A stretch of 44,072 nt of DNA, taken from Nitrospinota bacterium. GTDB taxonomy: Bacteria; Nitrospinota; Nitrospinia; CAJXCL01. Position 1 is the stretch's first letter. Every line of letters begins with the position of its first letter. Of this stretch, positions 6,595-36,679 are shown in pieces. The position numbers and the translations under genes are program-made. Location: NCBI GenBank assembly GCA_036011265.1, contig DASCNB010000008.1:1-44072 (forward strand), given 5' to 3'. The notes beneath the pieces were generated by a model. The model was not told the DNA's origin. It did not search any database and worked only from the letters and a program-made list of their open reading frames with translations.

Positions 6595-7131
6595 ACCAAC
6601 CAAAACCCTTAAACAAATATGAATCTTATTATATTGATGATAACACTATTTAATTAATTCTTTAGCTGTTTTGCCAAAACTATATGTTGCAGCAGGAATG
6701 CTGGCAAAGGAGAACAGAGAAAGTAACTTTAACCATCTGATAGGCGATTCAAAAATGATTAATTATATTTCAAATTAAAAAAATCACAAAATTCTATTAA
6801 TTATAGTTTTTACCGCTGATGTCATTCTTTTGTAAGGTCGTTATTACATAACTAAAAGTGCTATACACGGTGATTCGGCTTACTATTTCTCAATTATTAG
6901 ATCTCTTGCTTTTGATAAATATTTTATTAAAAAAAACAGCATTACTGCAATGGCATTTCTTCATACACAAACAAAAGCAAAATTCCAATGATTTCCGTTA
7001 AAAATCCTGTTACGTGAAGAGTGCCTAATAAATACCCGGACGGAAGAACGATAGTACTTATTTCTCCTTTTTTAGCGGGGCATTTTTATCCATTCTACAG
7101 CAAAAAGTCGATTTTTATTTTTAAATTAGTT

Positions 7132-11038: not shown

Positions 11039-11060
11039 TTTTTAAAAGATGTTTGTTGTG

Positions 11061-12305: not shown

Positions 12306-12311
12306 ACCGGG

Positions 12312-17675: not shown

Positions 17676-20600
17676 TTAGTCCATTTTTTTATAGGAAATA
17701 ATTTTTTCTTCTTTTTTTCCTTTTAAGGTGACATAAGCAAAAACTGCAGAAAGGAGCAATAATGAAAATATGGTGATATACAATCCAATCTTGAAAGATA
17801 AAGGGTCATACTTGAAAGTAACTTCATGACTTCCCCCTGGGATGTGAACAGCTCTAAACGTATAGTTTGCTCTGTAAATCTTTGTCCTTTCTCCATCGAT
17901 AAATGCTTTCCAACCAGGAAAATAATTATCAGACAGCACTAAGAACCCTTGTTTTTCTGAGTTTGTTTTAATTCTAACAAGATTAGATTTATAAGTAGTA
18001 ATAGTTGTTTGGGCAGCATGGTCTTCATTGTTTAAAGGATTGGAAAAATTTGCCGGAGGATATTCTTCTAAAATAACTTCTTTTGATAAATCAAGCTTTT
18101 TATTTTTTATGCTTTCAAGTATTTTTAAATCATTCTTTATAACTGTATATTTTTTCGCAATATGTGCTCTCTTGAAAACTGTTGAATTCGCAAACAAAAA
18201 AATATTTTTTTCAGAGTTTTCCATGACAAGCTTGTAATTTTCCTGCATTTCTTGCGAATCAGTAATAATGTATTTAACGCCCATTAAATTTAGCAAAGTA
18301 GAATTAACATCATTGATTTCATGAAAATTCTTCCTTTTAGAATCAAACATATAATTAATAAATTCTTTATACCTTAATATATTTATAGCGTCATAGTTCC
18401 TTATGTCAGGTATACTATATGCGACATTAACATTAGGAGGGAAATATACTCCTATAGCCGTCGAGCGATAATAATCTGAATTCTCAGACTTTATTTTGTT
18501 TATCAAGTGATTTTCAGGGTAAAAATTTTTATTCTTCACTGTTGGCACATAAAAAATACCATGAATACCGGTTTCTAGAAATATAAACAGGGGAATCATT
18601 ACGAGGATTACATTTTTATACCTATGTTTTTTGCCATTTAGAATAAGCCACCTTACGCAGATAAAAGTCAATAACCATACTAAGACGGTTATGATTTGTG
18701 TTCTAGTAATCTCTAAGTAGTCCCTATCAACCCCATAATCAGGAATTAACAAAAACGATTTCCAGGTTAAAAACCAGCAATACGCAACTATCAGAGCAAT
18801 AAATGCAAAGGCTTTGATTAATTCACTACCCTTTAACTCTTCATTTTTGAAATAATAACCATCAAATGTTTTACAGCCTAAAACAACTAAAATAAAACCT
18901 ATAAGAAACTGCATTCTTATATTTGTAGCTATTTTAAAAAGAGGCAAACCCTCAAATATATTTGAAATCGGGCTTATCCTATAAGCAACGCTACAAAAAA
19001 TAAGAAGCATTATCAACAAAAACCCCATTTTTCTATCTTTAGTAAAATATTTTACTCCGACAAAAGCTAAAACAAGCATAAACAGCCCGATATATCCTCC
19101 TCCCAGTTCATTATAGTTAGTAGGTGACGCATAGTAAGGAACTATATTCCCAAACGTCTGGTTTCCATAAAAATCAGGAATAATGTTAGTAATAAAAGCA
19201 AAAAAAACTGACCCTTTTCCACTCCCCATTTCAACAGATCTAGATAGAAAAACTTCGCTTATCGATAAATATTCTAGAAATGGTAAGAGTTGGACCATTG
19301 AAAGCAATGTTCCCAAAAAATTAAATCCTACAAAAAATGAAAACATTATTATCCTTTTTTTCCACTCAAGGTTTAATGAAAATAGCAGAAATATAAAATA
19401 GGATGTGGTAAAAAAAACTATATGAAATAAAGTCTCAGGATGGCCACCAAAAAGTGCGGCTACAAATAACAATGAATAAACCATGAAAAGCTTAATGATT
19501 GATTCCCAATTATTAGCCTTAAATACCCGTTCAAAAAGAAATAGACTGGCGGGAAGAAAAAAAGTCACAGAAGACACAGGCCAATACAACCAGCAGATAT
19601 TATAACCACAAAATGCAAATGCTATGGCGCCAATCATGGAAGAATATCTGTGAAAATCTAACTCTTTCAAATAAAAATAGGTGAAAATACCTGTCAAAAA
19701 AAGTTTCATAAAATAAAATAGAAACCCTGCGATTTTCATGTTAAAAAAGGAAAAAAAGACATTTAAAGGGTACAACAAAGCACTCTGCATATTAGCAAAG
19801 TGAGGGATCCCGGCAGATTGAAGATGATTCCATAAAGGGAATTCACCATTTTCCAAAGACCTTAAGGAAAAGAGTCGCCAAGGCTCCATTTGACTTAATA
19901 CGTCTGACCATAAAATATTTGTATTCGAATTTTTGAATCCAAAAAGTGGGGAATGTTGCAAGATTCCAGCAGCTGAGTTTATTTCTCCAAAAAAAATAGT
20001 GCGATAAAAAAATACTGATATTAATATAGTTAAAGTTGTACCTATGAATACTGACTCTTTTTTTAAAATCTTAATGTGCGCAAAGTAATTAATGGCATAA
20101 TCAACGTGGTCAAAAAGACGCCAAAAATTGTATATGGTGAAATGCCTGCTTATATAAATAACGTGGCAGATGACCACGCTTGATATTAGAAGATTATATA
20201 AAGTTCTCTCAGTAAATATTATTTCATAAGAACTAATCATCGAGAATAAATTTAACGAAGCAAATAAAATTAGCGGGGCAACAACAGAAAGGAGATAATA
20301 TCTGACTATTCTTATGGAGTAATCGGAAAGCGCCATAACAATCGGAAATAGTAATAAAAATAACAAACCGTATAATAAAATTATTGAAATGAGTTTTATT
20401 AAAGAAAACAAATGTGCTTTTTTTACTTCAAGTTTGTATTTAGCACTATCTAAAAGAATATAGGCTTCAAAAAAACCGAGCGAATAACCTCGGTGATTTA
20501 GCAATTCAATTTTTTCTAAAGCAATTTGGGGATTCGAAATGGAGTGAAAAAATGAAAATTCATTCCAACCGGGCCTAAGTTTTTTGGCTGAAACAATAAA

Positions 20601-21053
20601 CCCAACTGTTGATCTTTCCCAGGAATCTGTTCCTCCCGGAATTTTATGGGTAATAATTGGATTGCCGTTGACTCGAACTTCCTCAGAATATGAACTTTCT
20701 GACTTGTTCTTTGCCCATAGTCTTAGCTGAAAGTAATAAGTATTATTTTTTTTGATAAATACTTTTACTATAGATTTTTCACCTTTAACAAAGACCTTTT
20801 TGTAATCCTTTGGATTCTTTAAGATTTTCCATCCTTCTTTCAGATCTAAATTTGAATTTTCATCATCGAACTGAAAGATTGTCAGCTCTCTTTCGAAATT
20901 ATTATATATGCTGTTTTTTGTTATAAAAAACAATGAACACAGTAGTAAAAAAAAAATAGAGGAATAAATTTTAATTTTGAAAGGGTTCAATGTTCCAATA
21001 GTTCTTTTGAGGTGAGTTATTGTACTAATAATTTTCCCCCGCCACTTCTTCAC
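17676..21053 (-). CDS. Giant YfhO-like GT-C membrane glycosyltransferase (copy 2, paralog of 13907..17239)
   Basis: 1125 aa with the same architecture and motifs (EFPLWNHLQSAGIPHFANMQSALLYPLNVF, GGHPET, SDNYFPGWKAFIDGERTKIYRANYTFRAVHIPGGSHEVTFKYDP). The GTG start overlaps the upstream gene by 29 nt, so the start is uncertain. Confidence 0.7.
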   Translation of the reverse strand: MKKWRGKIISTITHLKRTIGTLNPFKIKIYSSIFFLLLCSLFFITKNSIYNNFERELTIFQFDDENSNLDLKEGWKILKNPKDYKKVFVKGEKSIVKVFIKKNNTYYFQLRLWAKNKSESSYSEEVRVNGNPIITHKIPGGTDSWERSTVGFIVSAKKLRPGWNEFSFFHSISNPQIALEKIELLNHRGYSLGFFEAYILLDSAKYKLEVKKAHLFSLIKLISIILLYGLLFLLLFPIVMALSDYSIRIVRYYLLSVVAPLILFASLNLFSMISSYEIIFTERTLYNLLISSVVICHVIYISRHFTIYNFWRLFDHVDYAINYFAHIKILKKESVFIGTTLTILISVFFYRTIFFGEINSAAGILQHSPLFGFKNSNTNILWSDVLSQMEPWRLFSLRSLENGEFPLWNHLQSAGIPHFANMQSALLYPLNVFFSFFNMKIAGFLFYFMKLFLTGIFTYFYLKELDFHRYSSMIGAIAFAFCGYNICWLYWPVSSVTFFLPASLFLFERVFKANNWESIIKLFMVYSLLFVAALFGGHPETLFHIVFFTTSYFIFLLFSLNLEWKKRIIMFSFFVGFNFLGTLLSMVQLLPFLEYLSISEVFLSRSVEMGSGKGSVFFAFITNIIPDFYGNQTFGNIVPYYASPTNYNELGGGYIGLFMLVLAFVGVKYFTKDRKMGFLLIMLLIFCSVAYRISPISNIFEGLPLFKIATNIRMQFLIGFILVVLGCKTFDGYYFKNEELKGSELIKAFAFIALIVAYCWFLTWKSFLLIPDYGVDRDYLEITRTQIITVLVWLLTFICVRWLILNGKKHRYKNVILVMIPLFIFLETGIHGIFYVPTVKNKNFYPENHLINKIKSENSDYYRSTAIGVYFPPNVNVAYSIPDIRNYDAINILRYKEFINYMFDSKRKNFHEINDVNSTLLNLMGVKYIITDSQEMQENYKLVMENSEKNIFLFANSTVFKRAHIAKKYTVIKNDLKILESIKNKKLDLSKEVILEEYPPANFSNPLNNEDHAAQTTITTYKSNLVRIKTNSEKQGFLVLSDNYFPGWKAFIDGERTKIYRANYTFRAVHIPGGSHEVTFKYDPLSFKIGLYITIFSLLLLSAVFAYVTLKGKKEEKIISYKKMD
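17711..18704. repeat. Second copy of the ~1-kb near-identical block (see 13921..14914)
   Basis: Same evidence as for the first copy. Confidence 0.9.
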
Positions 21054-23136
21054 TTGCCAGGGCTATGAATGTTAAATCCCCTTTTTCAGGGAGATGGTTT
21101 CTCATGAATGTTCCGTCTTCATATTTATCACTGGAGGACATCCATGCGGTAAAAGCGTCACCTTGTGCTGCACCGGGAGATTCTAAGTAAAAGTAGTATT
21201 TCTTTCCCCTGGAATCTCGTATATGCGGAAAACCGATAGAATGCCATGAGTTATCTTTAATTTTTGAAGCAGGTAGAACGACTTTAACAATATCTTCGCT
21301 GCTATCTTCAGCATTTCTAAGATGAAATATTATTTCTTGCGAAATCCGGCGATTATAAGAAGCGATAAAAACTTTAATTACAGAAAGATGATTGACGTCA
21401 GAAATGAATGTTTGTCCAATAATATTATTTTTTGTAATCTCACCAACAGTAGTTTCATGCTCAATCTGCTCAGCAGTTCTGACTAAATTAGGTAATATTA
21501 CTTTATAAACTTCGAAGTGCTCAAGAGGATTATCATCAAACCAAAAGGGCAAAAGGCCGAATCCATGGGAGTAAAACCCGGCGTTAGATTTTACACTTAA
21601 GACTTTTAATTTTTCCCTGCTATCTATTCTGAAATCTTTTTCAAAATTTAACAATATATCCCGTTTATCTAAATCCATTGGGACGTTAAGTTCCGGTTTG
21701 ATTATTAAATCGTTCTTTTTTAATTTGGAATCAAAGGTCAGATATTTATATCCTTCTTCAGTCATATAATGTCTAAAACCCCATTCCCCGGTAAACCAGA
21801 TAGTTCCAACTGAAGAAACTTTATTTTTCACATCCCGAGCAAAGGATTTATATGAATTGGCATAATTATAGTCCGCTGTTGCAGTTCTTAGCGAAAAGAC
21901 AATCATTAGAAGTAAATACATATAAATTAGCTTATTAAATTTAATTTTGTTCGCAAGTAATATCAATAAAGGGGGTATCAACGGAAATAAATATCTGTTA
22001 GCGCCAAAAGGAGTAAACAGGATACATACTGCGAAAAAAAACAAAAACCAGATAGCCAAAAACAACGTGTCCTGTTTTTCCGGCCTCTTTTCTATGGAAT
22101 CGGTAAACTGATACAATATGCTTAGAATCATAAATATACCGAAGGCGAATGAAGCTAAAAGGACAATTTTCTGATTGATGGAGTAGCCGGCAAAAATAGA
22201 ATCATTAACCGATATGAACAGGATAAGTGAAAACGCAAAAGAGAATAAATATACGGGCATGAGGCGCTTTTGCCAACCGTAGACTATAAAAATTACGGGT
22301 GATAAAAATGAAAGTCCAAGGTTAGACAGATAATAAACTGTCTTTAGTTTAAGCGCTAACACTCTGTCTAATTCAAAAGGGAGCTTTTCGCTGAAGGGAT
22401 TCGGCAAGTCTCCCACGATGGCATAGTGATAAGCATACCAGAATAAAACAGGTAGAAGAGAAGCCGGCATAAAGAAAAAGTATTTTAGATTGTTTCTGTC
22501 CTTTAAGTAGGAATAAAGGAAAAAGAGAGGGTAAAAAACAATAGATTGATAAGATATGGCAATAGAAATGGAGAAAAGAATCATTGAAACTAATACTAAT
22601 TTACAGGATTTTTTATCCACCCCGGATATATAAAAAATAAAGCTGCCCATTAAAAAAGAGTAGAAACAGATATCAGTCATTATATTACTTGAGAGGACAA
22701 TAAATGGCGGGGTGAGAAGCAGCAGGAGAGATAGTATAAACGGTGATTTTGAAAACCTCAGAAAAAATAAATAAGTAAATACCGATACCGACGCTGGAAA
22801 AATTAAATATATAAGATGAAAAACTTTTTCATCCGGATTATCAAAAAGGTAGTAAATAATAAAATTAAGGGGCGGCAAACCTAAAGGAGAGTGTGATGAA
22901 TTCAAAGCATTTTCATATCGAATGCCGTAATAATAATAAGGTTTTAGATAATAGCTATTGATTCCATCAAAGTAAAACTTTCCGAGGTCGAGGAATAAAG
23001 GATCATCGATATGAAACGCTTTGTCGGCAAAAGGGATCAGCAAGAATATTGTAACAGCAGAAAGGATGGCCAGATGAAGGTAGATTAAATTTATTTTTTT
23101 GGGGTAGTCTAATAATAATTTAAGAGTTTCTGCCAT
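21025..23136 (-). CDS. GT-C-fold membrane glycosyltransferase (ArnT/PMT-like) with a ~230-aa C-terminal soluble domain
   Basis: 703 aa. An early loop FADKAFHIDDPLFLDLGKFYFDG follows TM1, and about 12 further TM helices follow. Its start lies 12 nt downstream of the stop of the upstream radical SAM gene. Confidence 0.55.
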   Translation of the reverse strand: MAETLKLLLDYPKKINLIYLHLAILSAVTIFLLIPFADKAFHIDDPLFLDLGKFYFDGINSYYLKPYYYYGIRYENALNSSHSPLGLPPLNFIIYYLFDNPDEKVFHLIYLIFPASVSVFTYLFFLRFSKSPFILSLLLLLTPPFIVLSSNIMTDICFYSFLMGSFIFYISGVDKKSCKLVLVSMILFSISIAISYQSIVFYPLFFLYSYLKDRNNLKYFFFMPASLLPVLFWYAYHYAIVGDLPNPFSEKLPFELDRVLALKLKTVYYLSNLGLSFLSPVIFIVYGWQKRLMPVYLFSFAFSLILFISVNDSIFAGYSINQKIVLLASFAFGIFMILSILYQFTDSIEKRPEKQDTLFLAIWFLFFFAVCILFTPFGANRYLFPLIPPLLILLANKIKFNKLIYMYLLLMIVFSLRTATADYNYANSYKSFARDVKNKVSSVGTIWFTGEWGFRHYMTEEGYKYLTFDSKLKKNDLIIKPELNVPMDLDKRDILLNFEKDFRIDSREKLKVLSVKSNAGFYSHGFGLLPFWFDDNPLEHFEVYKVILPNLVRTAEQIEHETTVGEITKNNIIGQTFISDVNHLSVIKVFIASYNRRISQEIIFHLRNAEDSSEDIVKVVLPASKIKDNSWHSIGFPHIRDSRGKKYYFYLESPGAAQGDAFTAWMSSSDKYEDGTFMRNHLPEKGDLTFIALASEEVAGENY

Positions 23137-23148
23137 ACATATGTTTAT

Positions 23149-24606
23149 TTAAATGTGCGGTTTGGATTTCAATAATTTAAAAAGTGTTAAAAATCCCATT
23201 GCCGCGATTCGAAAAGCAACTCTGGGAGAACGGATGCTTAATAGAGTTTTAATTAAATATTTCGGTCGTAAGTAAAATCTCCGCAGAGCCGTCCGGTATA
23301 AATTATTTAATTCACCAGGTGATAGGTGAGGGGATTTAACTCTGTATTCAAACAGTAATTCTTTATCGTGGATCAGCATATCACTTTCTTTAGCCATTTT
23401 ATGCAGCTCAGTTCCGTATAAAGGGTGTGCAAAATAAAAATCGGAAATACTTCCATCGAGCTTTATCGCAAAGTTTATTGTGTCATTGATCATGTCTTTC
23501 GTTTCCCAGGGAAACCCGATGATGTAGTAAAGATATGTTTTGATTTTATGATCCTTAAATATCTGAACAGCTTCTTCAGCCTGGACGAGCGATATGCCTT
23601 TTTTCATTTTGTCGAGAGTTTCCTGGTTCCCGGATTCTACTCCCAGGCTTACGGCGTAGCAGCCTGACTTTTTCATATTGAGCGCCATTTCTTTATCTAT
23701 AGTGTCTGCCCGGCTGTTGCAATACCAGTTTATCTTCAAATTTTTTTTTATAATTCTATCACATATTTCAAGCACCCATTTTTTATCGCACGTAAAGGTC
23801 TCGGCTCCCATAAAGAAATTTAATATGCCGAATTTCTTTACACATTCTTCAATTTCGTTGACAATATTTTTAGGAGAACGCTTTCTTAAAACCCGCCCGG
23901 CCCCCTGTATGGCTGAACAAAAAATACATTCAAAGGGACATCCAGATGAAGCCTGGATAACCGTGAAAGGCTCCATACTGTCGGGCCTGAGGTAAAGCTC
24001 CTTTTTCAGCAAATGCCTTGCGATAAAAGGCAAAGAGTCTAGCTCATTAACAAAATCCGCTTTAGGCGTTTTAACAATAGTGCCATTTTCTCTAAAACTA
24101 ATCCCAGTTATTTGACGCAGGTTTTCTTTTGATACAATGGTAATTAAAGAGCGATCTATTTCTCGCGTCATGAAAATATCCAGGTCATTGCATTTTTCCA
24201 TAGCGCCTTCATCATCATTTAAGGGAGCGCCTTTCATTATTGTTAAAATACTTTGATTATGTTTTTTTGCTATCCGACAGGCTTGAAAATCGTCATCTCT
24301 TGTTTTTAAAACTGTGCTGATATATAGAACATCAGGGTCAAATTGCTTAAAGTCTTTTTCGAGTTGCTCCCACCCTACGTTTTCAGCAGGATAATCAGAA
24401 ATACGGCATTGATATGAAGCTTCTTCTAAGATAGCTGCGGCAAGTCCCAATCTCAGGGGAGGTCGAATGACAGCAAACATGGTTTTCTCAATTGGAGACT
24501 GACACCTATCTTCCCTTACCCATAAGCCTGTTGGTGGAGTTATTAAAAAAACCTTTTTCATTATTTTCTGCTTCCCTGGTTGAAAATTAAGTTCCGAGGT
24601 TGACAA
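23149..24606 (-). CDS. Cobalamin-binding-domain radical SAM enzyme (class B-like), subtype 1
   Basis: The N-terminal Rossmann-like domain (VFLITPP...PPLRLGLAAAILEEASYQ) is followed by the radical SAM cluster motif SSGCPFECIFCSA and then LGVESGNQETLDKMKKG. It is the same subtype as the relic at 5508..6594. An alternative start is the ATG at 24561 (MKKVFLITPP). Confidence 0.8.
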   Translation of the reverse strand: MSTSELNFQPGKQKIMKKVFLITPPTGLWVREDRCQSPIEKTMFAVIRPPLRLGLAAAILEEASYQCRISDYPAENVGWEQLEKDFKQFDPDVLYISTVLKTRDDDFQACRIAKKHNQSILTIMKGAPLNDDEGAMEKCNDLDIFMTREIDRSLITIVSKENLRQITGISFRENGTIVKTPKADFVNELDSLPFIARHLLKKELYLRPDSMEPFTVIQASSGCPFECIFCSAIQGAGRVLRKRSPKNIVNEIEECVKKFGILNFFMGAETFTCDKKWVLEICDRIIKKNLKINWYCNSRADTIDKEMALNMKKSGCYAVSLGVESGNQETLDKMKKGISLVQAEEAVQIFKDHKIKTYLYYIIGFPWETKDMINDTINFAIKLDGSISDFYFAHPLYGTELHKMAKESDMLIHDKELLFEYRVKSPHLSPGELNNLYRTALRRFYLRPKYLIKTLLSIRSPRVAFRIAAMGFLTLFKLLKSKPHI

Positions 24607-26119
24607 AGTGGTTAATGTATTTTTTAACGAAAGAAAAAGTCAGTTCACCTCTTAAAGCTGCGGCTGTCCCTATTTGTCCTAAGCGGATCAGGTTCGCCAC
24701 GTTAGCAAAATAGTATAGCGCTTTGGGATTCTTTTTTAACCACTGGTTTTTGCTCAAATTCAAAATTAAGGATTTTGGAATAAAACTTTTGTCAATTAAG
24801 GAGGTAATGCATATCCAGAAAAATTCAGATTTTGGGCGAGGATAATCCTGGGTGAAAAATGATTGTGACAAGGCTTTATCTCCTTCTCCTTCCACGTCTT
24901 TTTCAGAAATAAGTTTTTCATTTAAAGCGCGCTCTGTTAATCGCGTTTTTGGAAAATGCATAAGGGAAAATAAATGAAAATGAATAGGACGTTTCAGTTT
25001 GAGCAAAAACTTAACGGCTTCTTCTCTGGTTGCTTCTGTTTCAAAAGGGTTATCAAAAATCAAATCAATTTTAGGCGTGACACCGTTTTTGTTTAATAAT
25101 TGAACTGCGGAATATACCGCCTTATCTGATTCCGGGCGATGAAATATTTTTTTTCTTACATAGGCCGAACCAGTCTGTAACCCAATTTGTACATGCTTCA
25201 AGCCAACTTTTTTTAAATGCTTAATAGATCCCTCAATAATTCCGAAGGGATGATAAAAACACCAAAAAGGAAGGTTAATTTCTTTTTGGTAGCGTTTGCT
25301 AAATTCTATGACCCAGTCAATATCACTGGCAAACTCATCATCTATGAATTGTATCATTCGAATGCCAGGAATCATTTTTTTTATGGCAACGAGCTCATCA
25401 ATAACACTGTCCGCGCTTCTTCGACGAATGTATCCTTTTTTGCCACCAGAAGCTTTCATGAAAAGGTTGTTAGAGCAGTATGTACACAAATACCTGCACC
25501 CCTTAGAAGTGATGGTTACATAAAGCCAAGGTGCTTCTCTAAATGGGTCTGTCTCTTTTATGGTATTTTCAGAAATAAAAAACTTCTTTTCATTAGAGTA
25601 GTCTGGAAAAGGAAGATTGCAAAAAGTATTATCAACCGGTTCTATTTTATTGGAAATAATTGAGCCATTTTTTTTAAACCAGAGGTTAGGGATTGTTGAG
25701 ATATCACTTTGCGAACCATTAAGTGAAGTCAACAATTTTTTTAGAGACATTTCCCCATCTCCCGCGCATACAAAATCCGCGGTTATAATAGACTCCTCTG
25801 GAAGGATAGTGGCATGAGCGCCACCCCATATAACAGGAGCATCGAGTTGACTCTTAATTATAATTGTGATCTCTTTTGCTATTTTTGAAAGAGCAGAACA
25901 GCCAACACTGATTCCTATGAGTCCCGGGTTTATTTTCTTTAAAATATTAATTAAAAAGTCTTTCTCTTTTGATGTCGGCTTTTCCACGTCATTAAAAAAC
26001 ATGTCTTTAAAAAATATTACACTTACGTCAAAACCTTGACTTCGCAAATATGAGGTTAAAAAGCGGACTCCTAAATTGCTGGTACTATAGAGAGAGATTA
26101 AAGCAAAGTTATTTTTCAT
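24587..26119 (-). CDS. Cobalamin-binding-domain radical SAM enzyme (class B-like), subtype 2
   Basis: VIWGGAHATILPEESIITADFVCAGDGEMS (B12-binding-like domain), radical SAM motif SKGCRYLCTYCSN, and IGLQTGSAYVRKKIF. Confidence 0.8.
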   Translation of the reverse strand: MKNNFALISLYSTSNLGVRFLTSYLRSQGFDVSVIFFKDMFFNDVEKPTSKEKDFLINILKKINPGLIGISVGCSALSKIAKEITIIIKSQLDAPVIWGGAHATILPEESIITADFVCAGDGEMSLKKLLTSLNGSQSDISTIPNLWFKKNGSIISNKIEPVDNTFCNLPFPDYSNEKKFFISENTIKETDPFREAPWLYVTITSKGCRYLCTYCSNNLFMKASGGKKGYIRRRSADSVIDELVAIKKMIPGIRMIQFIDDEFASDIDWVIEFSKRYQKEINLPFWCFYHPFGIIEGSIKHLKKVGLKHVQIGLQTGSAYVRKKIFHRPESDKAVYSAVQLLNKNGVTPKIDLIFDNPFETEATREEAVKFLLKLKRPIHFHLFSLMHFPKTRLTERALNEKLISEKDVEGEGDKALSQSFFTQDYPRPKSEFFWICITSLIDKSFIPKSLILNLSKNQWLKKNPKALYYFANVANLIRLGQIGTAAALRGELTFSFVKKYINHFVNLGT

Positions 26120-26250
26120 GAAATTAAGTCTAAACTGATCCTATAAATAGATTTCTATAAAAAATATTATAACAGCCAGTCATTCAATACCAACTATTAT
26201 ACAGCAACTTTTAAGTGATGATGCCCGCATAATTATACTCTGAGATTTTC

Positions 26251-26279
26251 TTGTAAATAAGAAAGATATTTTTTACACT
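26251..26279 (+). promoter_or_regulatory. Candidate promoter in the divergent 207-nt spacer (-35 TTGTAA, 17-nt spacer, -10 TACACT)
   Basis: Hexamers read directly, ending 48 nt upstream of the ATG at 26327. Confidence 0.25.
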
Positions 26280-26326
26280 GAATTAAGTAGTCATACAGTT
26301 GTTGCACGGCTTTACCATTAATAAAC

Positions 26327-27958
26327 ATGATTAGTAATGAAAAAGGACTCTCAAGTGTGAAAATTATCTTTATTTGTATAGGTTCCGATATTCAATCGAT
26401 AGGATTCAGGAAAATGGCCTCGTTAGCGAGGTCAATACATCCGCATGTTGAGGTGGGTTATATTGTAATTGCTAATCCCTATGCACATATTAATGTTTTC
26501 CAAAAGTCGGGGGAAGTTAAATTTGAGCTTTTGGAGAATGATCTTGAAAAAATCAGCGCCCATTTGGCAAAAGCTTATATGGTATGTTTTTCATCGATGA
26601 CTATGTATGCAAAACTTACAAAAGAAATTATCACTAAAATTCGCTCGGTAAATGAAAAGACCTTTATAGTATGGGGAGGGATACATCCCATTGTACACCC
26701 TGAAGACGCTATCCGAAGTGCTGACGCTATTTGTGTGGGGGAGGGCGAATCCGCTTTTAAAGAGTTTCTATTGAGCTTCAGGAATGGGAATGACTATACT
26801 GGGACGAGGAATTTCTGGTTTAACATAAAGGGTAAAGTCATTAAAAATAATTTTCTTTCCCTTCACAACGGGGAAGATATGAATAACTTTCCTCTTCCTC
26901 TCTATGCGGAAGATGAACTGGTATATGAACGCAATAAAGGTTTCATGCCGCTTGACTTTTCAAAATATATTTCATACAACTCACTTACCTACAACACTAT
27001 ATGGTCTATAGGATGCCCCTATAAGTGTATATACTGCAGTAATTCCAAATTTATTGAAAATGACGGAAACTACAGAAAAGTACGCTACCCTTCAGTCGAT
27101 TACGTAATATCGGAAATTAAAAGTGTTTTGAAAAAGCATGCTCATCTTTCAACAATCGTTTTTCACGACGATAGTTTTATGGCAATTCCTATTAATCAAT
27201 TAAGAGAGTTTGCTAAAAAGTGGAAAAATGAGATAGGACTTCCTTTCTGTGTTCTTGGCATTATTCCAAGTTTTGTTGAAAGAGATAAAATAGAACTGCT
27301 GATATGGGCTGGTATGTACCGAGTAAGAATGGGAATTCAAAGCGGCAGTAATCGTATTCTCAAATTTTACAAAAGGCCAAATAAACCGGGATTAATTGAA
27401 AGAGCCGCAGCAAGTATAAACGAGTTTGCAGATTATATGGTTCCACCAGGATATGATATTATTGTAGATTGTCCCATTGAAACCCGGGAAGATGTAATAG
27501 ATACATTAGATATGCTTTATAGACTGCCGCGACCTTATATATTAAATATTTTTGCACTAAGAGTAATTCCCAACACGGTTCTATCAAATGAACTATCAAA
27601 ACTTGGCGTGTCCCACCCAGGGATTGAAAGCAATGACTTTACGTACATAACACCAACCCTTGCCAATGTGATGGTTCATCTGTTGGCTGTATTGAGACCT
27701 CCAAAAAAGATGTATGAGTTTCTATTAAAATACATTAAGGTAAGTACTAAAGAACAATTGAAATATCCCCTGACTTTACACACTCTAAGATTAGTTATCT
27801 TGATTAAAGTGTTGATTTTCCGTATGCGCTTTATGGATTTTCCCGGGTTGCCGGGCAAAATGAACTTTTTGGTCTGGAAACTGGGGATCGTCAGATTCTG
27901 GCAAGTAAAAATCCTTAAAAGGTCCTCAAGAATTTTAGTCAAGTTAGATTCCCGATAA
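26327..27958 (+). CDS. Cobalamin-binding-domain radical SAM enzyme (class B-like), subtype 2 paralog
   Basis: IVWGGIHPIVHPEDAIRSADAICVGEGESA, radical SAM motif SIGCPYKCIYCSN, and MGIQSGSNRILKFYKR. It is clearly paralogous to 24587..26119 and divergently transcribed from it. Confidence 0.8.
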   Translation: MISNEKGLSSVKIIFICIGSDIQSIGFRKMASLARSIHPHVEVGYIVIANPYAHINVFQKSGEVKFELLENDLEKISAHLAKAYMVCFSSMTMYAKLTKEIITKIRSVNEKTFIVWGGIHPIVHPEDAIRSADAICVGEGESAFKEFLLSFRNGNDYTGTRNFWFNIKGKVIKNNFLSLHNGEDMNNFPLPLYAEDELVYERNKGFMPLDFSKYISYNSLTYNTIWSIGCPYKCIYCSNSKFIENDGNYRKVRYPSVDYVISEIKSVLKKHAHLSTIVFHDDSFMAIPINQLREFAKKWKNEIGLPFCVLGIIPSFVERDKIELLIWAGMYRVRMGIQSGSNRILKFYKRPNKPGLIERAAASINEFADYMVPPGYDIIVDCPIETREDVIDTLDMLYRLPRPYILNIFALRVIPNTVLSNELSKLGVSHPGIESNDFTYITPTLANVMVHLLAVLRPPKKMYEFLLKYIKVSTKEQLKYPLTLHTLRLVILIKVLIFRMRFMDFPGLPGKMNFLVWKLGIVRFWQVKILKRSSRILVKLDSR

Positions 27959-28031
27959 AAGCATCTGGGAATCTCAACATTGAAATTCCTAAGCATTTAT
28001 TAGTGCCTGATAGTCGGAAAAATTATCACTA

Positions 28032-29171
28032 TCATCCGTTTTTATGTATAAAATCTATAATGTCGCAGATTTGGTTGATATCTTTCTCTATAAGCTCTCC
28101 ATACAGAGGTAAACTGAGAACCTGTCCTGTTACTTTTTCTGCTACAGGTAAATTTGTTGCTGATGAAGAGGGAAGGTGCCGGTAACATTTAAATTGACTG
28201 CAAAGAGGGTAAAAATACTTGCGAGTGAAAATATTGTATTCTTTTAATTTGTCATACAAAATGTCACGGCTTATACCAAAATCTTTTTTATCTATTTTTA
28301 TTACAAAATTGTTGTAATTATGTTTAATGCTTGGGCGATCCTCTCTGAAACTAATACCAGACATACCTTCTAATCGTTTGCGATAGATAAGAGTTAATTG
28401 TTTTCTTCTGGATGATTCTTCATCTGCAAGGTCTAACATTAGTAAACCCATAGCTGCCTGCATTTCATTCATCTTGGCATTTACCCCGGGGACTATGACG
28501 GATTCTTCATCCTTAATGCCAAAGTTTTTTGACAACTCTAATCGATCTTTCAAGCTATTATCTTTATATGTCAGCGCCCCTCCTTCCATAGTATGGAATA
28601 TCTTTGTCGCGTGAAAACTGAACATTGAGGCGTCCCCGAAATTCCCAATCGGTTCATTATTAAATTCAACTGCAAAGCAATGCGCTGCGTCATAAATCAC
28701 ACGAAGCCCGTGACGATCTGCAATATCCTGAATTTCATCAACTTTACATGGGTGGCCAAATACATGAACAGGTAGTATCGCCGTGGTTTTAGGTGTAATC
28801 AATGATTCGATACATTCCGGATTAAGGTTAAAGCTATCCTCTTCGATATCACAAAATACGGGTGTGATCTTATTCCAAAAAAGTACATGGGAAGTAGCGG
28901 GAAAAGTAAAAGGAGTTGTGATAACTTCTCCTGATAACCTTAGTGCCTGACATGCTATTTGCAGTGCAAGTGTCCCGTTACAAAACAGGCTTATGTTTGG
29001 CGCTCCTAAGTATTTTTCTAATGCCAGTTCAAATAATTGATGCTGAGGTCCATTATTAGTCAACCAGTAGGATTCCCATATTTCATCAATTTTTCGGACC
29101 ATGTCATCGCGGGAAGGCAGCAGAGGACGGGTCACGTAAATAGGCGTGGTAAATGGTTCAAGATTTTTCAT
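28032..29171 (-). CDS. DegT/DnrJ/EryC1/StrS-family PLP-dependent sugar aminotransferase
   Basis: 379 aa. It has the FSFHATKIFHTMEGG lysine motif and N-terminal IYVTRPLLP...W.....LTNNGP, as in ArnB/WecE/QdtB-type enzymes. Confidence 0.85.
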   Translation of the reverse strand: MKNLEPFTTPIYVTRPLLPSRDDMVRKIDEIWESYWLTNNGPQHQLFELALEKYLGAPNISLFCNGTLALQIACQALRLSGEVITTPFTFPATSHVLFWNKITPVFCDIEEDSFNLNPECIESLITPKTTAILPVHVFGHPCKVDEIQDIADRHGLRVIYDAAHCFAVEFNNEPIGNFGDASMFSFHATKIFHTMEGGALTYKDNSLKDRLELSKNFGIKDEESVIVPGVNAKMNEMQAAMGLLMLDLADEESSRRKQLTLIYRKRLEGMSGISFREDRPSIKHNYNNFVIKIDKKDFGISRDILYDKLKEYNIFTRKYFYPLCSQFKCYRHLPSSSATNLPVAEKVTGQVLSLPLYGELIEKDINQICDIIDFIHKNG

Positions 29172-29365
29172 AACTGTGTTTCAACCCTGCTTTTTACGTT
29201 TAAATATTTGTCTCACTATTTCGGAAATAGTAATAAATATACTCAAGGTTTTACAATATTATAATAATTAAAATTTCTTTTTGCGGTCAATCCTTGATTG
29301 GAGATACGTACTTTGTTATGTTGGTTTATCTTACCAGAATAACCTTATAAAAATAAATTAGAAAT

Positions 29366-30316
29366 ATGGAAATAGCTGATCCAAAAAATCATAACACTCC
29401 TTTTTTCTCAGCAATTATAACCTGTTATTTTGAAGAAAAGAGCATAATAGAATTTCATACAAGGTTTTCAAAAGCTTTAAATAGCTTAGACAAAAGTTAT
29501 GAAATAATATTTGTCAACGATGGCAGTGCGGATGGAACCTTTGAGTTATTGAAGGAAATATTCAATAGGGACAAGAAAGTTACCAGGGTAATTAATTTCT
29601 TTAAAAACTCGGGACAGGGAGCTGCTATTACTGCAGGAATAAATCATGCCAAGGGAAAACATTTTATTTTGATGGATAGCGATCTTCAATTGGCTCCGGA
29701 GGAACTCCCATTGCTGGTCAACGAATTTGAAAAAGGCTGCGACATTGTAAGCGGCTATAGAAAAGATAGGAAGGATTCATTTTTCAGAATTGTTCCCTCT
29801 GTGCTTGCTAACTATATTATGCGCAAAGTGTCTAAAAGCGATTTAAAGGATTTCGGCTGTACTTTTAAAATATATCATGGAGAACTGATAAGGGCTTTTA
29901 ATTTAGGTCCGTTAAAATTATTTAACCCAGTTTATATTATAGAACAAGCTCAAAAATGCCGGGAGGTCCCTGTTTCTCATTTCCCTCGAAAATACGGGAA
30001 ATCGGGCTGGACCTTTAACAAATTAACGGAATACAATATGGAAAATTTTATGGGTATGTTTTCGAAAGCCTTTCAAGTTATAGGATTCTGGAGCATTCTT
30101 ATAGCCCTGCTTCTTGTTCTGAGGACAATTGTTGACTATTTTTATTCTTTTAAAATTCTTTCTAAAATATATAATGGACTTTTATTGATTGCCATAATGC
30201 TTTCCATGTTTATAACATTAAAGATGCTTTGTTTGATAGGCGAGTATGTGGTAAGAATTTTTTCCGTAGCGCAGAAAAATCCTAAATATATTATTAAAGA
30301 AATCCTGGAACGGTAG
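29366..30316 (+). CDS. Membrane-anchored GT2 polyprenyl-phosphate sugar synthase (ArnC/GtrB/CsbB/DPM1-like)
   Basis: FSAIITCYFEE..., YEIIFVNDGSADGT, NSGQGAAITAGINHAKG, ILMDSDLQLAPEE and DIVSGYRKDRKD motifs, plus two C-terminal TM helices. Confidence 0.8.
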   Translation: MEIADPKNHNTPFFSAIITCYFEEKSIIEFHTRFSKALNSLDKSYEIIFVNDGSADGTFELLKEIFNRDKKVTRVINFFKNSGQGAAITAGINHAKGKHFILMDSDLQLAPEELPLLVNEFEKGCDIVSGYRKDRKDSFFRIVPSVLANYIMRKVSKSDLKDFGCTFKIYHGELIRAFNLGPLKLFNPVYIIEQAQKCREVPVSHFPRKYGKSGWTFNKLTEYNMENFMGMFSKAFQVIGFWSILIALLLVLRTIVDYFYSFKILSKIYNGLLLIAIMLSMFITLKMLCLIGEYVVRIFSVAQKNPKYIIKEILER

Positions 30317-30321: not shown

Positions 30322-31002
30322 ATGAAGTTTGCATTTTATGTTTCCGGCAAGGCAACACGATTAGTAAAAACTTTATCTCACTTGGAACACAGCAACGCTG
30401 AACTTCTTAAAAAAATAAAACTTGCCTTTATCGACAACTGTAACAACGACTCTTTAAGAGAACTGTGTGGCAGACTGGGGCTAAACTTCTTCGAGTTTAA
30501 CGCTGACGCTGTTAAAAAAGAATTAATTAACGAAACGCTTTCCGGGAAATTGCTGGAATGTTTTTTTAATGAAAAGATAGATTACGGATTTGTTTTTGGA
30601 AGAAGGATTCTGGTTGGAGAAATTCTTAATAAATACAATCACAGGTTAATCAACTTTCATCCATCCCTTTTACCCCAATTCAAAGGAGTTAATGCGATTG
30701 ATCAGGCGCTAAAGGAAAAAGCCTTTTTGTTAGGCAATTCAGCCCATTTTATTAACGAAAAGGTAGATGAAGGGGAGATCATCATGCAGTCTCTTCTTCC
30801 TAGTCTTTCCTTTAAAAATTATGACGACGTACTGGACATGCAGATTAATATGCTAATCCAGATCATGTGCTGGCTGATGGAAAGCAGGATTACCGTTAAA
30901 GACGGAAGAGTTAATATAAATAACGCTAAATATGAAATAAGCAGCTATATCCCAAATTTGGAGTTTACTATTAATGAGTTTTTTAAGAGAGAAAATCAGT
31001 GA
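30322..31002 (+). CDS. Formyltransferase-domain protein, probable sugar N-formyltransferase
   Basis: LINFHPSLLPQFKG and SAHFINEKVDEGEII match the N..H...D catalytic layout of Fmt/PurN/ArnA-N type formyltransferases. At 226 aa it is in the size range of sugar N-formyltransferases. Confidence 0.75.
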   Translation: MKFAFYVSGKATRLVKTLSHLEHSNAELLKKIKLAFIDNCNNDSLRELCGRLGLNFFEFNADAVKKELINETLSGKLLECFFNEKIDYGFVFGRRILVGEILNKYNHRLINFHPSLLPQFKGVNAIDQALKEKAFLLGNSAHFINEKVDEGEIIMQSLLPSLSFKNYDDVLDMQINMLIQIMCWLMESRITVKDGRVNINNAKYEISSYIPNLEFTINEFFKRENQ

Positions 31003-31703
31003 AAGTTGGAATTATGCAACCCTATCTTTTTCCCTATATGGGTTATTTTCAGTTGATCAACGCGGTGGACACGTTTGTCATTCATGATGATGTTCAATAT
31101 ATTAAATCAGGTTGGATAAATAGGAATAGGTTTCTTCTTAATGGCAAAGAGTACTTGTTTACATTTAGCGTCAAAAAAAATGCTTTTACCCGGTTTATTA
31201 ACCAAAGATATTATTCCGACAAATTTGAAATGGAGAAGGGGAAATTTCTCCGGGTACTAAAACAGGCATACTGCAAGGCACCTTTTTATAATAAAATTTT
31301 TTCTTTAACTCGTGAAATATTGTCTCATAAGGACCTGAATGTTTCGAGCTTAAATTTATTTGGGATTAAGAAATTCTGTGAATATTTAGGCATATCGACG
31401 CCAATGGTTTTATCATCGGATTTGGAAAAAAACTGTAGTTTAAGAAACGAGGCTCGTGTTATAGGCATTAACCGAGCTTTGAAGGCAACCCATTATGTAA
31501 ATCCGGTTGGTGGCATTGATCTCTATTCTAAGGAATTTTTTTCTAAAAACGGGTTAAAATTACTTTTTCTCAAATCCCACGAAATTAAATATAAGCAATT
31601 TAATGATGCTTATTTGCCCGGACTTTCAATAGTAGATGTTTGCATGTTTAACAAAATAGATGATATTCAAACTTTTTTAAATCAATACGAGTTAAAATCT
31701 TAA
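30999..31703 (+). CDS. WbqC-like family protein (function unknown, O-antigen-locus associated)
   Basis: VGIMQPYLFPYMGYFQLINAVDTFVIHDDVQYIKSGWINRNR is the typical WbqC N-terminus. The GTG start overlaps the formyltransferase stop (GTGA). Confidence 0.75.
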   Translation: MKVGIMQPYLFPYMGYFQLINAVDTFVIHDDVQYIKSGWINRNRFLLNGKEYLFTFSVKKNAFTRFINQRYYSDKFEMEKGKFLRVLKQAYCKAPFYNKIFSLTREILSHKDLNVSSLNLFGIKKFCEYLGISTPMVLSSDLEKNCSLRNEARVIGINRALKATHYVNPVGGIDLYSKEFFSKNGLKLLFLKSHEIKYKQFNDAYLPGLSIVDVCMFNKIDDIQTFLNQYELKS

Positions 31704-31711: not shown

Positions 31712-32464
31712 ATGAATAAAATCCGAACCGTATCGCTTGGGCCAAGCCAGGAAAATAAACTGAGAAAGAACCTCATAAAGCTGTTTAAAAAATGCCCTAT
31801 ACCGGAAAATGAACTTTTCTCTAATATAGGGCTATTTTTAAGCAGACATCAGATCTCAAGGATTTTATTCATAAATGATATTTATAAAAACATTTTGAAC
31901 TCGCATGGGGTTGTAATTGAGTTTGGAGTCAGGTGGGGTCAAAATATGGGGTTATTTGAGGCATTAAGAGGTGTCTATGAACCCTTTAACCTTACCCGGA
32001 AAATTATCGGTTTTGATACCTTTGAAGGATTTCCCTCGGTTCATGAAAAAGATGGGAATGACGGTATCACTTCAGTAGGTGGATACGGAGTTACTAAAAA
32101 TTACGAAAAGTATTTAAAACAAATATTGGACTACCATGAAAAAATGAACCCGAACCCTCATATAAAAAAATATGAACTGGTAAAAGGGAACACCCTAAAT
32201 GAAATTGATAAGTATTTTAAAAAACACCCGGAGACAATTGTCGCCCTGGCTTACTTTGATTTCGATTTATATGAACCAACAAAGAAATGTCTGGAAGCTA
32301 TAAAAAGTCGTCTTTCGAAAGGAAGCATTATTGCGTTTGATGAATTAAATTCACCACACTTCCCGGGAGAAACCCTGGCATTAAAAGAAGTTTTTGGATT
32401 AAATAAATTCAAGATCATTCGAAGTCCCTATAGCCAACTTCAATCTTACGTTGTATTTGAATGA
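31712..32464 (+). CDS. TylF/MycF-like SAM-dependent (sugar O-)methyltransferase
   Basis: GVVIEFGVRWGQNM (SAM-binding loop), FDTFEGFP and LAYFDFDLYEPTK, as in macrocin-O-methyltransferase family proteins. Confidence 0.65.
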   Translation: MNKIRTVSLGPSQENKLRKNLIKLFKKCPIPENELFSNIGLFLSRHQISRILFINDIYKNILNSHGVVIEFGVRWGQNMGLFEALRGVYEPFNLTRKIIGFDTFEGFPSVHEKDGNDGITSVGGYGVTKNYEKYLKQILDYHEKMNPNPHIKKYELVKGNTLNEIDKYFKKHPETIVALAYFDFDLYEPTKKCLEAIKSRLSKGSIIAFDELNSPHFPGETLALKEVFGLNKFKIIRSPYSQLQSYVVFE

Positions 32465-33069: not shown

Positions 33070-33099
33070 TTCTTTAAGTGTGTAAGCTTTTGGAGGACA

Positions 33100-35920: not shown

Positions 35921-36679
35921 ATGATTAGCGGAAAAAAAGTGGTGGTAGTGCTTCCGGCTTATAATGCGGAAAAGACCTTAAAAGACACCCATGACGAAAT
36001 ACCGGGAGATATTGTGGACAATATTATCCTGGTTGACGATGCCAGTAGCGATCACACTGTAGAATTAGCCAACAAGTTGAATTTAAAAACCATAGTGCAT
36101 CCCGACAATAAAGGATACGGTGGAAATCAGAAAACATGCTACAGGGAGGCTCTTAAGGCAGGGGCGGACATTGTTATTATGCTTCATCCGGACTATCAGT
36201 ATTCGCCAAAATTAATCGCTTCAATGGCTCACCTGGTTGCTTCCAGGCATTTTGATGTTGTCATCGGCTCAAGAATTTTAGGAACGGGCGCTCTTAAAGG
36301 AGGCATGCCGTTATATAAATATATATCCAACCGTTTCTTAACTTTAATACAGAATTTAATGCTTGGGTATAAACTATCAGAATATCATACCGGATATCGC
36401 GCGTTCAGCCGTAAGGTATTAGAATTACTACCCCTGGAAGAAAACTCGGATGACTTCCTCTTTGATAACCAAATGCTTGCCCAATGTATCTATAATAAAT
36501 TTGAAATTGGCGAAATATCATGTCCGACAAAATACTTTCCAGAAGCATCGTCTATTAACTTCATTAGAAGTGTAGAATATGGTTTCGGAGTGCTTATAAC
36601 ATCTTTACAATTCTTCTTGTGTAAGAAAAAAATAATCTGCTCAAAAATTTTCAATCCAAAAGGCAGGAAATTGAGTTAA
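35921..36679 (+). CDS. Soluble GT2 family glycosyltransferase
   Basis: [39 protein letters not shown] and LHPDYQY motifs. 252 aa with no TM helices. Confidence 0.8.

Follow-up and report, generated by a model that had tools for sequence, protein, structure and literature searches.

Three class B-type radical SAM genes in a surface glycan locus

The subject of this study is a 44,072-nucleotide stretch of DNA from a Nitrospinota bacterium (contig DASCNB010000008.1 of assembly GCA_036011265.1; referred to here as the window), in which three intact genes for radical S-adenosylmethionine (SAM) enzymes, rSAM-A, rSAM-B and rSAM-C, are located within a cell-surface glycan locus. Class B radical SAM enzymes perform difficult C–H chemistry in antibiotics, cofactors, hopanoids and peptides, and to our knowledge they are not part of the textbook O-antigen, capsule, teichoic acid or Arn/Gtr pathways. 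Genes of the A, B and C families share a conserved neighborhood with polyprenyl-phosphate sugar synthases, glycosyltransferases (GTs) of the GT-C/YfhO type and amino-sugar enzymes. The three genes and the spacer between two of them are as follows.

23149..24606, minus strand: rSAM-A, maximal open reading frame (ORF) of 485 aa; AprD4/HpnJ/BchE-like radical SAM enzyme of class B architecture
24587..26119, minus strand: rSAM-B, 510 aa; canonical class B radical SAM enzyme (B12-binding and Radical_SAM domains), accessory member of the cluster
26120..26326, no strand: divergent intergenic spacer of 207 nt between rSAM-B and rSAM-C
26327..27958, plus strand: rSAM-C, maximal ORF of 543 aa; canonical class B radical SAM enzyme, divergent from rSAM-B

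A first-pass annotation of the sequence had described three intact ORFs of 485, 510 and 543 aa, and its coordinates, strands, lengths and quoted motifs were all found. The translations contain the CxxxCxxC motifs SSGCPFECIFCSA, SKGCRYLCTYCSN and SIGCPYKCIYCSN, and each matches Radical_SAM (PF04055, cut-off 29.5 bits): rSAM-A with 84 bits (E=1e-23), rSAM-B with 61 bits (2e-16) and rSAM-C with 57 bits (4e-15). Motif and domain together place all three in the radical SAM superfamily. The annotation had also given each enzyme a B12-binding-like domain in addition to this core. With respect to PF02310 (cut-off 32.1 bits), rSAM-B and rSAM-C score 46.5 and 46.6 bits and rSAM-A scores 26.3 bits; the class B architecture is thus seen by Pfam domain in rSAM-B and rSAM-C, and by fold only in rSAM-A. 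The division into two sequence subtypes was upheld as well, because rSAM-B and rSAM-C are 30% identical over 405 aa and rSAM-A and rSAM-B 23% over 243 aa.

Some of the gene boundaries depend on the start codon. On the maximal ORFs, a 12-nt gap separates rSAM-A from a gene for a 703-aa GT-C-like protein, and this gap and the 207-nt divergent spacer are as annotated. The annotated overlap of 20 nt between rSAM-A and rSAM-B likewise exists on the maximal ORFs but requires a TTG start for rSAM-A, and it is probably a start-codon artifact. GGGAAG stands 9 nt ahead of an ATG at 24561, and the homologs nearest in sequence have 464–470 aa; this ATG is probably the true start, yielding a protein of 470 aa and therefore a 25-nt gap to rSAM-B in place of the overlap. 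For rSAM-C, the form called in databases has 533 aa and homologs start at MKI, and the true start is probably GTG 26357 (533 aa). Promoter-like hexamers are found in the spacer on both strands (26193..26166 on the minus strand, 26272..26299 on the plus strand). Scans of 22900-29400 for promoters and terminators found no more of them than in shuffled sequence, and we therefore make no claim regarding operon boundaries.

The decayed fourth copy reported in the first-pass annotation was also recovered.

~5508..6603, minus strand: fourth B12-type radical SAM gene, decayed; pseudogene recognized by tblastn and ORF fragments

In tblastn, rSAM-A and rSAM-B give minus-strand matches at ~5640-6330 in differing frames. 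At least four frame-shifted ORF fragments are spread over 5508-6603, and the cysteine motif is kept in one of them as SSRGCPFDCTYCP (GCPFDCTYCP).

Family relations and folds of the three enzymes

Family membership was judged by the curated cut-offs of NCBIfam, and the searches with hidden Markov models (HMMs) that had been proposed for these proteins reached no characterized family, all scores being far below cut-off. For rSAM-A, the best models (bits/cut-off) are HpnJ (TIGR03471, 204/577.6), BchE (TIGR02026, 152/481), PhpK (127/600), TIGR04072 (125/360) and AprD4 (NF033070, 106/500). The best models for rSAM-B are TIGR04072 (97/360) and TIGR04013 (93/251), and those for rSAM-C are TIGR04013 (90/251) and TIGR04072 (70/360). 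With HpnJ, rSAM-B and rSAM-C score 78 and 54 bits, and with BchE 44 and 38 bits, so that none of the three is a member of either family; rSAM-A is not a member of the AprD4 family, and TIGR04014, with 87 bits against 360, is not reached. Also far below their NCBIfam cut-offs are the PhpK/Sden_1168 P-methyltransferases, KedN5, the Trp-2-C and ribosomally synthesized and post-translationally modified peptide (RiPP) C-methyltransferases, BzaD, the methyl-coenzyme M reductase (MCR) Gln C-methyltransferase and TIGR04072. Judged by sequence, rSAM-A, rSAM-B and rSAM-C are members of three uncharacterized subfamilies.

Two roles were considered and rejected on these grounds. A tetrapyrrole role of the HemN/HemZ/BchE type is contradicted by scores of at most 152 bits, far below the cut-offs, and none of the 27 window proteins scanned with Pfam provides a tetrapyrrole context. 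Phosphonate P- or C-methylation of the PhpK/Fom3 type is likewise accompanied by low HMM scores, and no phosphoenolpyruvate (PEP) mutase or other phosphonate enzyme was found among the 27 window proteins scanned with Pfam.

AlphaFold2 (AF2) models of rSAM-A and rSAM-C were built from the family alignments and have predicted local distance difference test (pLDDT) values of 90.7 and 88.7, respectively. The best PDB fold for rSAM-A is AprD4, the radical SAM 1,2-diol dehydratase of apramycin biosynthesis, in complex with its substrate (6FD2; TM-score 0.76/0.80, E=7.5e-29). MgmA, TsrM, OxsB, CysS and TokK come next, and the whole length of the model can be superposed on AprD4, TsrM and OxsB. The A-family profile matches AprD4 with 166 bits across the core and the C-terminal part, with the N-terminal domain not aligned. 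The two proteins have in common an N-terminal Rossmann-like domain and a GCPxxCxxC core, and the substrate of AprD4 is an amino sugar. They differ in that the identity is ~19-20% and that rSAM-A resides in a cell-surface glycan locus with a polyprenyl-phosphate GT2 and GT-C genes rather than in an aminoglycoside cluster. The A family is further distinguished by an invariant N-terminal RxDRCQ motif (residues 31-36) and by Cys 255, 282 and 316 beyond CxxxCxxC, which may constitute a second metal/cluster site or a catalytic site.

AprD4 has a B12-like domain, yet it makes no use of cobalamin, and it dehydrates a sugar diol and does not methylate. The label "cobalamin-type" used in the first-pass annotation is therefore safe for rSAM-A as a description of architecture and open as a description of function. 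The C-methylation that the annotation had suggested is one option among several, rSAM-A being nearest in fold and profile to a dehydratase. The model suggests that rSAM-A may work like AprD4 without belonging to that family, and it may well be a non-methylating AprD4/HpnJ-like enzyme.

The situation differs for rSAM-C, for which the best folds are the cobalamin-dependent class B radical SAM methylases MgmA (9CCB), TsrM (6WTE), CysS (9N1B) and TokK (7KDX) and the cobalamin enzyme OxsB (5UL3), the same enzymes that form the second tier for rSAM-A. These are unlike the window proteins in that they share 13-18% identity and act on peptides, proteins, carbapenems, tryptophan and nucleotides, not on glycans. 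The C family is large (45-57% identity across phyla), and its WGGIHP and CxGEGE motifs, which lie in the Rossmann domain, are invariant. Cobalamin use is plausible for rSAM-B and rSAM-C. The PDB sequence search returned nothing for rSAM-B, and the A2 profile gave a marginal sequence match to TokK (E = 6e-7).

HpnJ is a hopanoid-associated B12-type radical SAM enzyme, for which a ring contraction of lipid-linked glucosamine following the action of the GT2 HpnI has been proposed. As the best NCBIfam match of rSAM-A (204 bits), it aligns over nearly the full length, and the logic is shared: a GT2 places a sugar on a lipid, and an adjoining class B-type radical SAM enzyme remodels it. The window is unlike the HpnJ system in that none of the hopanoid enzymes (shc, hpnH, hpnI, hpnK) is found among the 27 scanned proteins and that the partner GT2 is without an HpnI match. 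The resemblance raises the alternative that a lipid is modified rather than a sugar, with the polyprenyl carrier or another membrane lipid being methylated, cyclized or cross-linked; HpnP and HpnR modify hopanoids, and GrsA/Tes-type enzymes modify archaeal lipids. On this view the glycan genes would be neighbors solely through a lipid shared by both. The best NCBIfam matches do include HpnJ, HpnR and TIGR04072 (lipid biosynthesis B12-binding/radical SAM protein), the GT2 that is the conserved partner uses a polyprenyl-phosphate lipid, and rSAM-C has a hydrophobic conserved C-terminal region (KD19 1.68 at residues 482-500). We nevertheless consider modification of a lipid unlikely: the scores with these three models are all far below cut-off, the 27 scanned proteins include no polyprenyl synthase, squalene-hopene cyclase or other lipid-synthesis enzyme, and the contexts of the C family are dominated by nucleoside-diphosphate-sugar enzymes, namely DegT, nucleoside triphosphate (NTP)-transferase, epimerases and TylC3-type C-methyltransferases.

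Conservation of the gene neighborhood

The glycan locus surrounding the three genes consists of the following features, in which transmembrane (TM) segments are predicted.

11061..13088, minus strand: Wzt (with Wzt_C) and Wzm of an ABC exporter; Wzt_C 91, ABC_tran 75, ABC2_membrane 72 bits
13907..17239, minus strand: YfhO-family GT-C, 1110 aa; Pfam YfhO 92 bits, weak PgfM2 match, ~16 predicted TM segments
17676..21053, minus strand: YfhO-family GT-C, 1125 aa; Pfam YfhO 110.8 bits, ~15 predicted TM segments
21025..23136, minus strand: GT-C-like polytopic protein, 703 aa; PMT_2 24 bits (cut-off 26.1), ~10 predicted TM segments
28032..29171, minus strand: DesI/ArnB-like sugar 4-aminotransferase (DegT family), convergent with rSAM-C; DegT 322 bits, DesI 330/650, ArnB 190/631
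29366..30316, plus strand: ArnC/PgfS-like GT2 (GT2_316); ArnC 157/529, PgfS 136/500, two C-terminal predicted TM segments
30322..31002, plus strand: formyltransferase; Formyl_trans_N 68 bits, putatively for amino-sugar N-formylation
30999..31703, plus strand: WbqC-family protein; WbqC 215 bits, conserved in loci L092 and L087 (below)
31712..32464, plus strand: 250-aa protein with a weak TylF-like methyltransferase match (20.5 bits, below cut-off)
33100..35199, plus strand: YfhO-like GT-C, 699 aa; weak YfhO C-terminal match (22 bits), ~11 predicted TM segments
35921..36679, plus strand: short soluble GT2 of the AglJ/PpgS/dolichyl-phosphate (Dol-P)-hexose-synthase type; AglJ 64, PpgS 62 bits, no predicted TM segment

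Several further GT2 and GT4 enzymes are present, and the window has five polytopic GT-C-type proteins, the fifth being a weak PMT_2-like protein of 497 aa. The genes for rSAM-B, rSAM-A, the 703-aa protein and the 1125-aa YfhO protein are closely packed on the minus strand, with that for the 1110-aa YfhO protein following after a 436-nt gap. The annotated succession of a GT-C transferase and giant YfhO genes is firm for the two giants (YfhO cut-off 28.5 bits); the 703-aa protein is a weak GT-C call by HMM, founded on its predicted TM segments, and it has no sequence match in the PDB. Both giants, at ~1100 aa, are much larger than typical YfhO, and the 1125-aa protein has ~370 residues before the Pfam match.

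The presence of Wzm and Wzt (with Wzt_C) marks the locus as an ABC-transporter-type O-antigen-like pathway. Pathways of the Arn or Gtr/CsbB-YfhO type load one modified sugar onto polyprenyl phosphate, flip it and transfer it by a GT-C enzyme outside the cytoplasm. In kind, the parts list is that of an Arn- or Gtr/CsbB-YfhO/PgfS-PgfM-type pathway, with a 4-aminotransferase, a formyltransferase, a polyprenyl-phosphate GT2 with two TM segments and GT-C/YfhO transferases; both features of YfhO-type decoration, YfhO itself and the polyprenyl-phosphate GT2 (GT2_316), are in the window. It is unlike those systems in that no part reaches an ortholog cut-off (ArnA 27/777 in addition to the ArnB, ArnC and PgfS scores above), making it an analog and not an ortholog. 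We know of no radical SAM enzyme in any of the Arn, Gtr, CsbB-YfhO or PgfS-PgfM systems.

Other features of the window were recorded in passing. A TIGR00375-family gene (36684-37958) follows the short GT2 gene after a 4-nt gap, and its homolog in locus L007 (84-1353) is in three ORFs. Long non-coding gaps interrupt the otherwise compact locus at 13089-13906 (818 nt), 35200-35920 (721 nt), 6604-7294 (691 nt) and 32465-33099 (635 nt), none of which contains an ORF of at least 100 aa or an Rfam match. The flanks at 2-394 (minus), 38483-41974 (minus) and 43220-44071 (plus) encode an HrcA N-terminal fragment, a PilZ protein, three response regulators (HD-GYP-like and LuxR-type among them) and the start of a TonB-dependent receptor; with this last fragment at its right end, the window comes from a diderm organism.

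Close relatives of the locus (65-76% identity) preserve much of this arrangement. An identical rSAM-A protein is encoded on 22 marine-metagenome contigs, with gene order alike in the six places displayed. The closest genome-level match of rSAM-A (71% identical) is in a Tara metagenome-assembled genome (MAG) labeled Nitrospirae (L007), which also has an ortholog of the 699-aa YfhO-like protein (1079 bits), and a 5.9-kb contig labeled Candidatus Anammoxibacter carries A, B and C. In L095, the ortholog of the 703-aa GT-C-like protein (1077 bits) adjoins rSAM-A, and rSAM-C and the aminotransferase follow. Locus L092 has a GT4, a methyltransferase, two large unannotated proteins (742 and 615 aa) and rSAM-A, then rSAM-C, then the aminotransferase with a hexapeptide acyltransferase, which takes the position of the formyltransferase; it continues with the ArnC-like GT2 (546 bits), WbqC, the 250-aa protein (475 bits), a short-chain dehydrogenase/reductase (SDR) and another B12-type radical SAM enzyme. 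The aminotransferase is in the same position in L092, L095 and L175. Neither L092 nor L095 has rSAM-B between A and C; this gene is therefore accessory, and the trio is not an obligatory unit.

A 68% identical ortholog of rSAM-B is instead found in L087 (Tara contig ERR599070 k127_173190, 1-11533), in a group that also has another B12-type radical SAM enzyme, two SDRs, an ArnC-like GT2 and WbqC and that immediately follows flagellin, CsrA, FliW and a Maf-type gene. This context looks like a flagellin-glycosylation island rather than an O-antigen locus, and it is one reason to ask whether the acceptor is modified and not the sugar, that is, the finished polymer or a protein or peptide, either RiPP-like or glycosylated by PMT/YfhO-type enzymes, as flagellin or an S-layer protein might be. 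Some PMT_2/YfhO GT-Cs are O-glycosyltransferases of proteins, one YfhO protein of the window weakly matches PgfM2, and there are weak matches to the RiPP radical SAM models ApyD and TIGR03975. Such a role is very unlikely, however, given that these RiPP-model scores are below those of sugar- and lipid-acting families, that we noticed no gene resembling a precursor peptide and no RiPP recognition element, peptidase or exporter, and that radical SAM enzymes need cytoplasmic SAM and reductant whereas the acceptors of GT-Cs are extracytoplasmic.

To assess more distant conservation, we compared 80 genome loci of the A family, 39-46% identical to rSAM-A, from at least 10 phyla (Omnitrophota, Nitrospirota, Planctomycetota, Sumerlaeota, Elusimicrobiota, Auribacterota, Chlamydiota, Patescibacteria, Coprothermobacterota and Nanoarchaeota, among others). 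By ORF clustering, the commonest real neighbor is a GT2 of ~230-260 aa, present in 42 of the 80. The models that a representative matches most strongly are AglJ, ArnC, Dol-P-hexose transferase and PpgS, each of them a synthase of polyprenyl-phosphate sugars; the short GT2 of the window (35921..36679) is of the same type. Such a GT2 lies within 5 kb of the A-family gene in 38 loci and is its immediate same-strand neighbor in 18; in 8 it is directly upstream, its frame ending -64 to +94 nt from the start of the stop-to-stop frame of the radical SAM gene. A GT-C family of the PMT_2 type lies within 5 kb in 17 loci, with 9 having one immediately upstream, and YfhO is found in 4 more. As a family-independent proxy we took any protein with eight or more predicted TM segments and a length of 450 aa or more; 34 loci have one within 5 kb, as against 13 for the 5-10 kb zone, a rough control in that the contigs are not all that long. 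Searches with phmmer for the window's own 703-aa GT-C and YfhO proteins were positive in 0 and 4 of the 80 loci, respectively, and distant conservation is visible solely by gene kind (short GT2, PMT_2-type GT-C, polytopic proteins).

Additional B12-type radical SAM paralogs are present in ~30 of the 80 A-family loci; in Omnitrophota L010, C-like, B-like, GT2, A-like and A genes are consecutive. Orthologs of rSAM-B at 40-45% identity are found in clusters of several radical SAM, GT2 and GT-C genes. Locus L088 has four B12-type radical SAM enzymes, two PMT_2 proteins, several GT2s, SDRs and a GMC oxidoreductase, and the order in L090/L091 is GT2–rSAM–GT2–rSAM–PMT_2–rSAM–rSAM–rSAM–SDR–unknown–rSAM–YfhO–amine oxidase. 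This last module (L090:2355-18774 and L091, from the Candidatus Aminicenantes MAG GCA_046538375.1), with six B12-type radical SAM enzymes, is the densest that was observed. In addition to their presence within the L088 and L090 clusters, SDR genes are directly upstream of the A ortholog in L007 and of the B ortholog in L087; in the window, the nearest SDR to the radical SAM genes is at 440-1354, and none is adjacent.

For the C family, all contexts that were sampled are glycan loci. Among 80 mostly short metagenome contigs, ArnC-like GT2s were counted on 17, DegT on 9, TylC3-type C-methyltransferases on 6 and rhamnosyl O-methyltransferases on 6, and NTP-transferase and epimerases are likewise among the neighbors. 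The Rhodospirillales MAG L093 combines DegT, heptose-activation genes, a second B12-type radical SAM enzyme, a SPASM radical SAM enzyme, GT2, PF03706 and Wzm/Wzt, and L176 to L178 are similar. PF03706 (LPG_synthase_TM) lies just upstream of rSAM-C orthologs in L093 (7674-8621, Rhodospirillales) and L177 (6990-7952, Smithellaceae), and its product is a candidate flippase for a lipid-linked sugar.

The linkage to glycan genes, whose conservation in relatives the first-pass annotation had set as a test, thus recurs in distant phyla as an association with glycan, polyprenyl-phosphate GT2 and GT-C/YfhO genes. The exact succession of two radical SAM genes, GT-C and YfhO was only partly retained: the link to GT-C and GT2 holds, but rSAM-B is missing in L092 and L095, and YfhO is as rare as stated above. 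What relatives conserve alongside the radical SAM genes is chiefly the GT2 of the polyprenyl-phosphate-sugar-synthase type and the DesI-like aminotransferase, and less so the YfhO giants. These data also bear on the notion that the linkage is fortuitous or a product of decay, the radical SAM genes being hitch-hiking paralogs without a role in the glycan. One copy is indeed a pseudogene, and rSAM-B is absent at its position in two relatives. We give this explanation hardly any credence, since the three genes are full length and their products retain all family-invariant residues, the 22 contigs with identical rSAM-A come from independent samples, and the synteny is kept across phyla.

Proposed role in sugar tailoring

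The reading we favor, with a probability of roughly one half, is that the radical SAM enzymes are glycan- or sugar-tailoring enzymes of a polyprenyl-phosphate decoration pathway; we are less sure of any particular reaction. What follows infers the substrate and the stage at which it is modified, the kind of reaction and the use of cobalamin. In the proposed pathway, a nucleoside diphosphate (NDP)-4-keto-6-deoxyhexose would be aminated at C4 by the DesI/ArnB-like aminotransferase and the amine of the resulting 4-amino sugar N-formylated. The ArnC-like GT2, the short AglJ/PpgS-like GT2 or both would then transfer the sugar to polyprenyl phosphate. Once flipped across the membrane, it would be attached in the periplasm by the GT-C/YfhO enzymes to an O-antigen-like polymer that Wzm/Wzt export. 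The radical SAM enzymes would act in the cytoplasm on this sugar, either nucleotide- or lipid-linked, through H-abstraction at unactivated carbons by the 5'-deoxyadenosyl radical. For rSAM-B and rSAM-C the reaction would most likely be a cobalamin-mediated C-methylation or alkylation, and for rSAM-A a dehydration/deoxygenation or rearrangement. The SDRs beside several orthologs could reduce a keto product, as AprD3 does, and the arrays of several radical SAM genes suggest successive radical steps on one sugar.

Because SAM and reductant are cytoplasmic, the substrate should be an NDP-sugar or a polyprenyl-phosphate sugar that has not been flipped. We consider the lipid-linked stage somewhat more likely, since the most conserved and tightest partner of the A family is a polyprenyl-phosphate GT2 and not an NDP-sugar enzyme. 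Precedents point in the same direction: ArnD acts on undecaprenyl-phosphate (Und-P)-linked 4-formamido-arabinose (Und-P-Ara4FN), DprE1/E2 on decaprenyl-phosphate-ribose and HpnK/HpnJ on hopanoid-linked glucosamine.

A different account places the chemistry at the NDP-sugar stage, where rSAM-A at least would catalyze an AprD4- or DesII-like deoxygenation or deamination without cobalamin-dependent methylation, followed by reduction of the keto sugar by an SDR. DesI and DesII of desosamine biosynthesis are an aminotransferase and a radical SAM deaminase, the latter without a B12-type domain. The window resembles this pair in that a DesI-like aminotransferase gene is directly beside a radical SAM gene, and NDP-4-amino-4,6-dideoxyhexose chemistry is plausible here. 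Consistent with this account, the sugar diol-dehydratase AprD4 is the best match of rSAM-A in both fold and profile, the adjacent aminotransferase matches best to DesI (330 bits), SDR "epimerase" genes accompany orthologs in L007, in L087 and in the L088 and L090 clusters, and the B12-binding score of rSAM-A is below the Pfam cut-off. The formyltransferase adjoining the aminotransferase (the acyltransferase in L092) suggests that the 4-amino group is retained, however, which argues against deamination. Moreover, the B12-binding domains of rSAM-B and rSAM-C are clear, their WGGxHP and GEGE motifs are invariant and both proteins match cobalamin enzymes best, and the partner most conserved with rSAM-A is, as noted, a polyprenyl-phosphate GT2. 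On this evidence we regard the NDP-stage account as doubtful.

Several observations weigh against the sugar-tailoring role in a polyprenyl-phosphate pathway. No characterized ortholog was found, all NCBIfam scores being 3- to 10-fold below cut-off. No clear TM segments are predicted in the radical SAM proteins; anchoring to the membrane is not supported, the one candidate being a marginal hydrophobic stretch in rSAM-C. An Rfam scan of the whole window gave no match and therefore no cobalamin riboswitch, and the Pfam scan of the 27 proteins likewise revealed no cobalamin transporter or synthesis gene in the window. The rSAM-B ortholog of L087 is in the flagellin context and not in a GT-C operon, YfhO is scarce in A-family loci, and a relative of rSAM-C in L094 is located among transposase genes, where the glycan context is weaker. 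Finally, the synteny fits the NDP-sugar and lipid-linked stages alike.

More tentatively, the loci may represent a widespread but unrecognized branch of bacterial glycan biosynthesis, in which one to six class B-type radical SAM enzymes would remodel polyprenyl-phosphate-linked monosaccharides prior to transfer by GT-C/YfhO enzymes; C-alkylation, deoxygenation and ring rearrangement are the candidate reactions. The enzymes are of known type, and we know of no description of this recurrent pathway context; a very limited literature search on radical SAM and YfhO returned nothing relevant, and an earlier report is possible. The genes keep the same company across at least 10 phyla that have almost no cultured members. 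If the sugar-tailoring role is correct, it would provide new enzyme families whose substrates, NDP-sugars or Und-P-sugars, are tractable, and the GT2/radical SAM pairs would offer enzymologists a ready co-evolving set for reconstitution. It would also predict new C-branched, deoxy or rearranged surface sugars, and would tie cell-envelope structure to the availability of cobalamin and oxygen in marine low-oxygen microbes. Should the existence of the unrecognized branch hold true, Omnitrophota, Nitrospirota, Aminicenantes, Sumerlaeota, Planctomycetota, Elusimicrobiota and others would bear surface sugars of novel chemistry.

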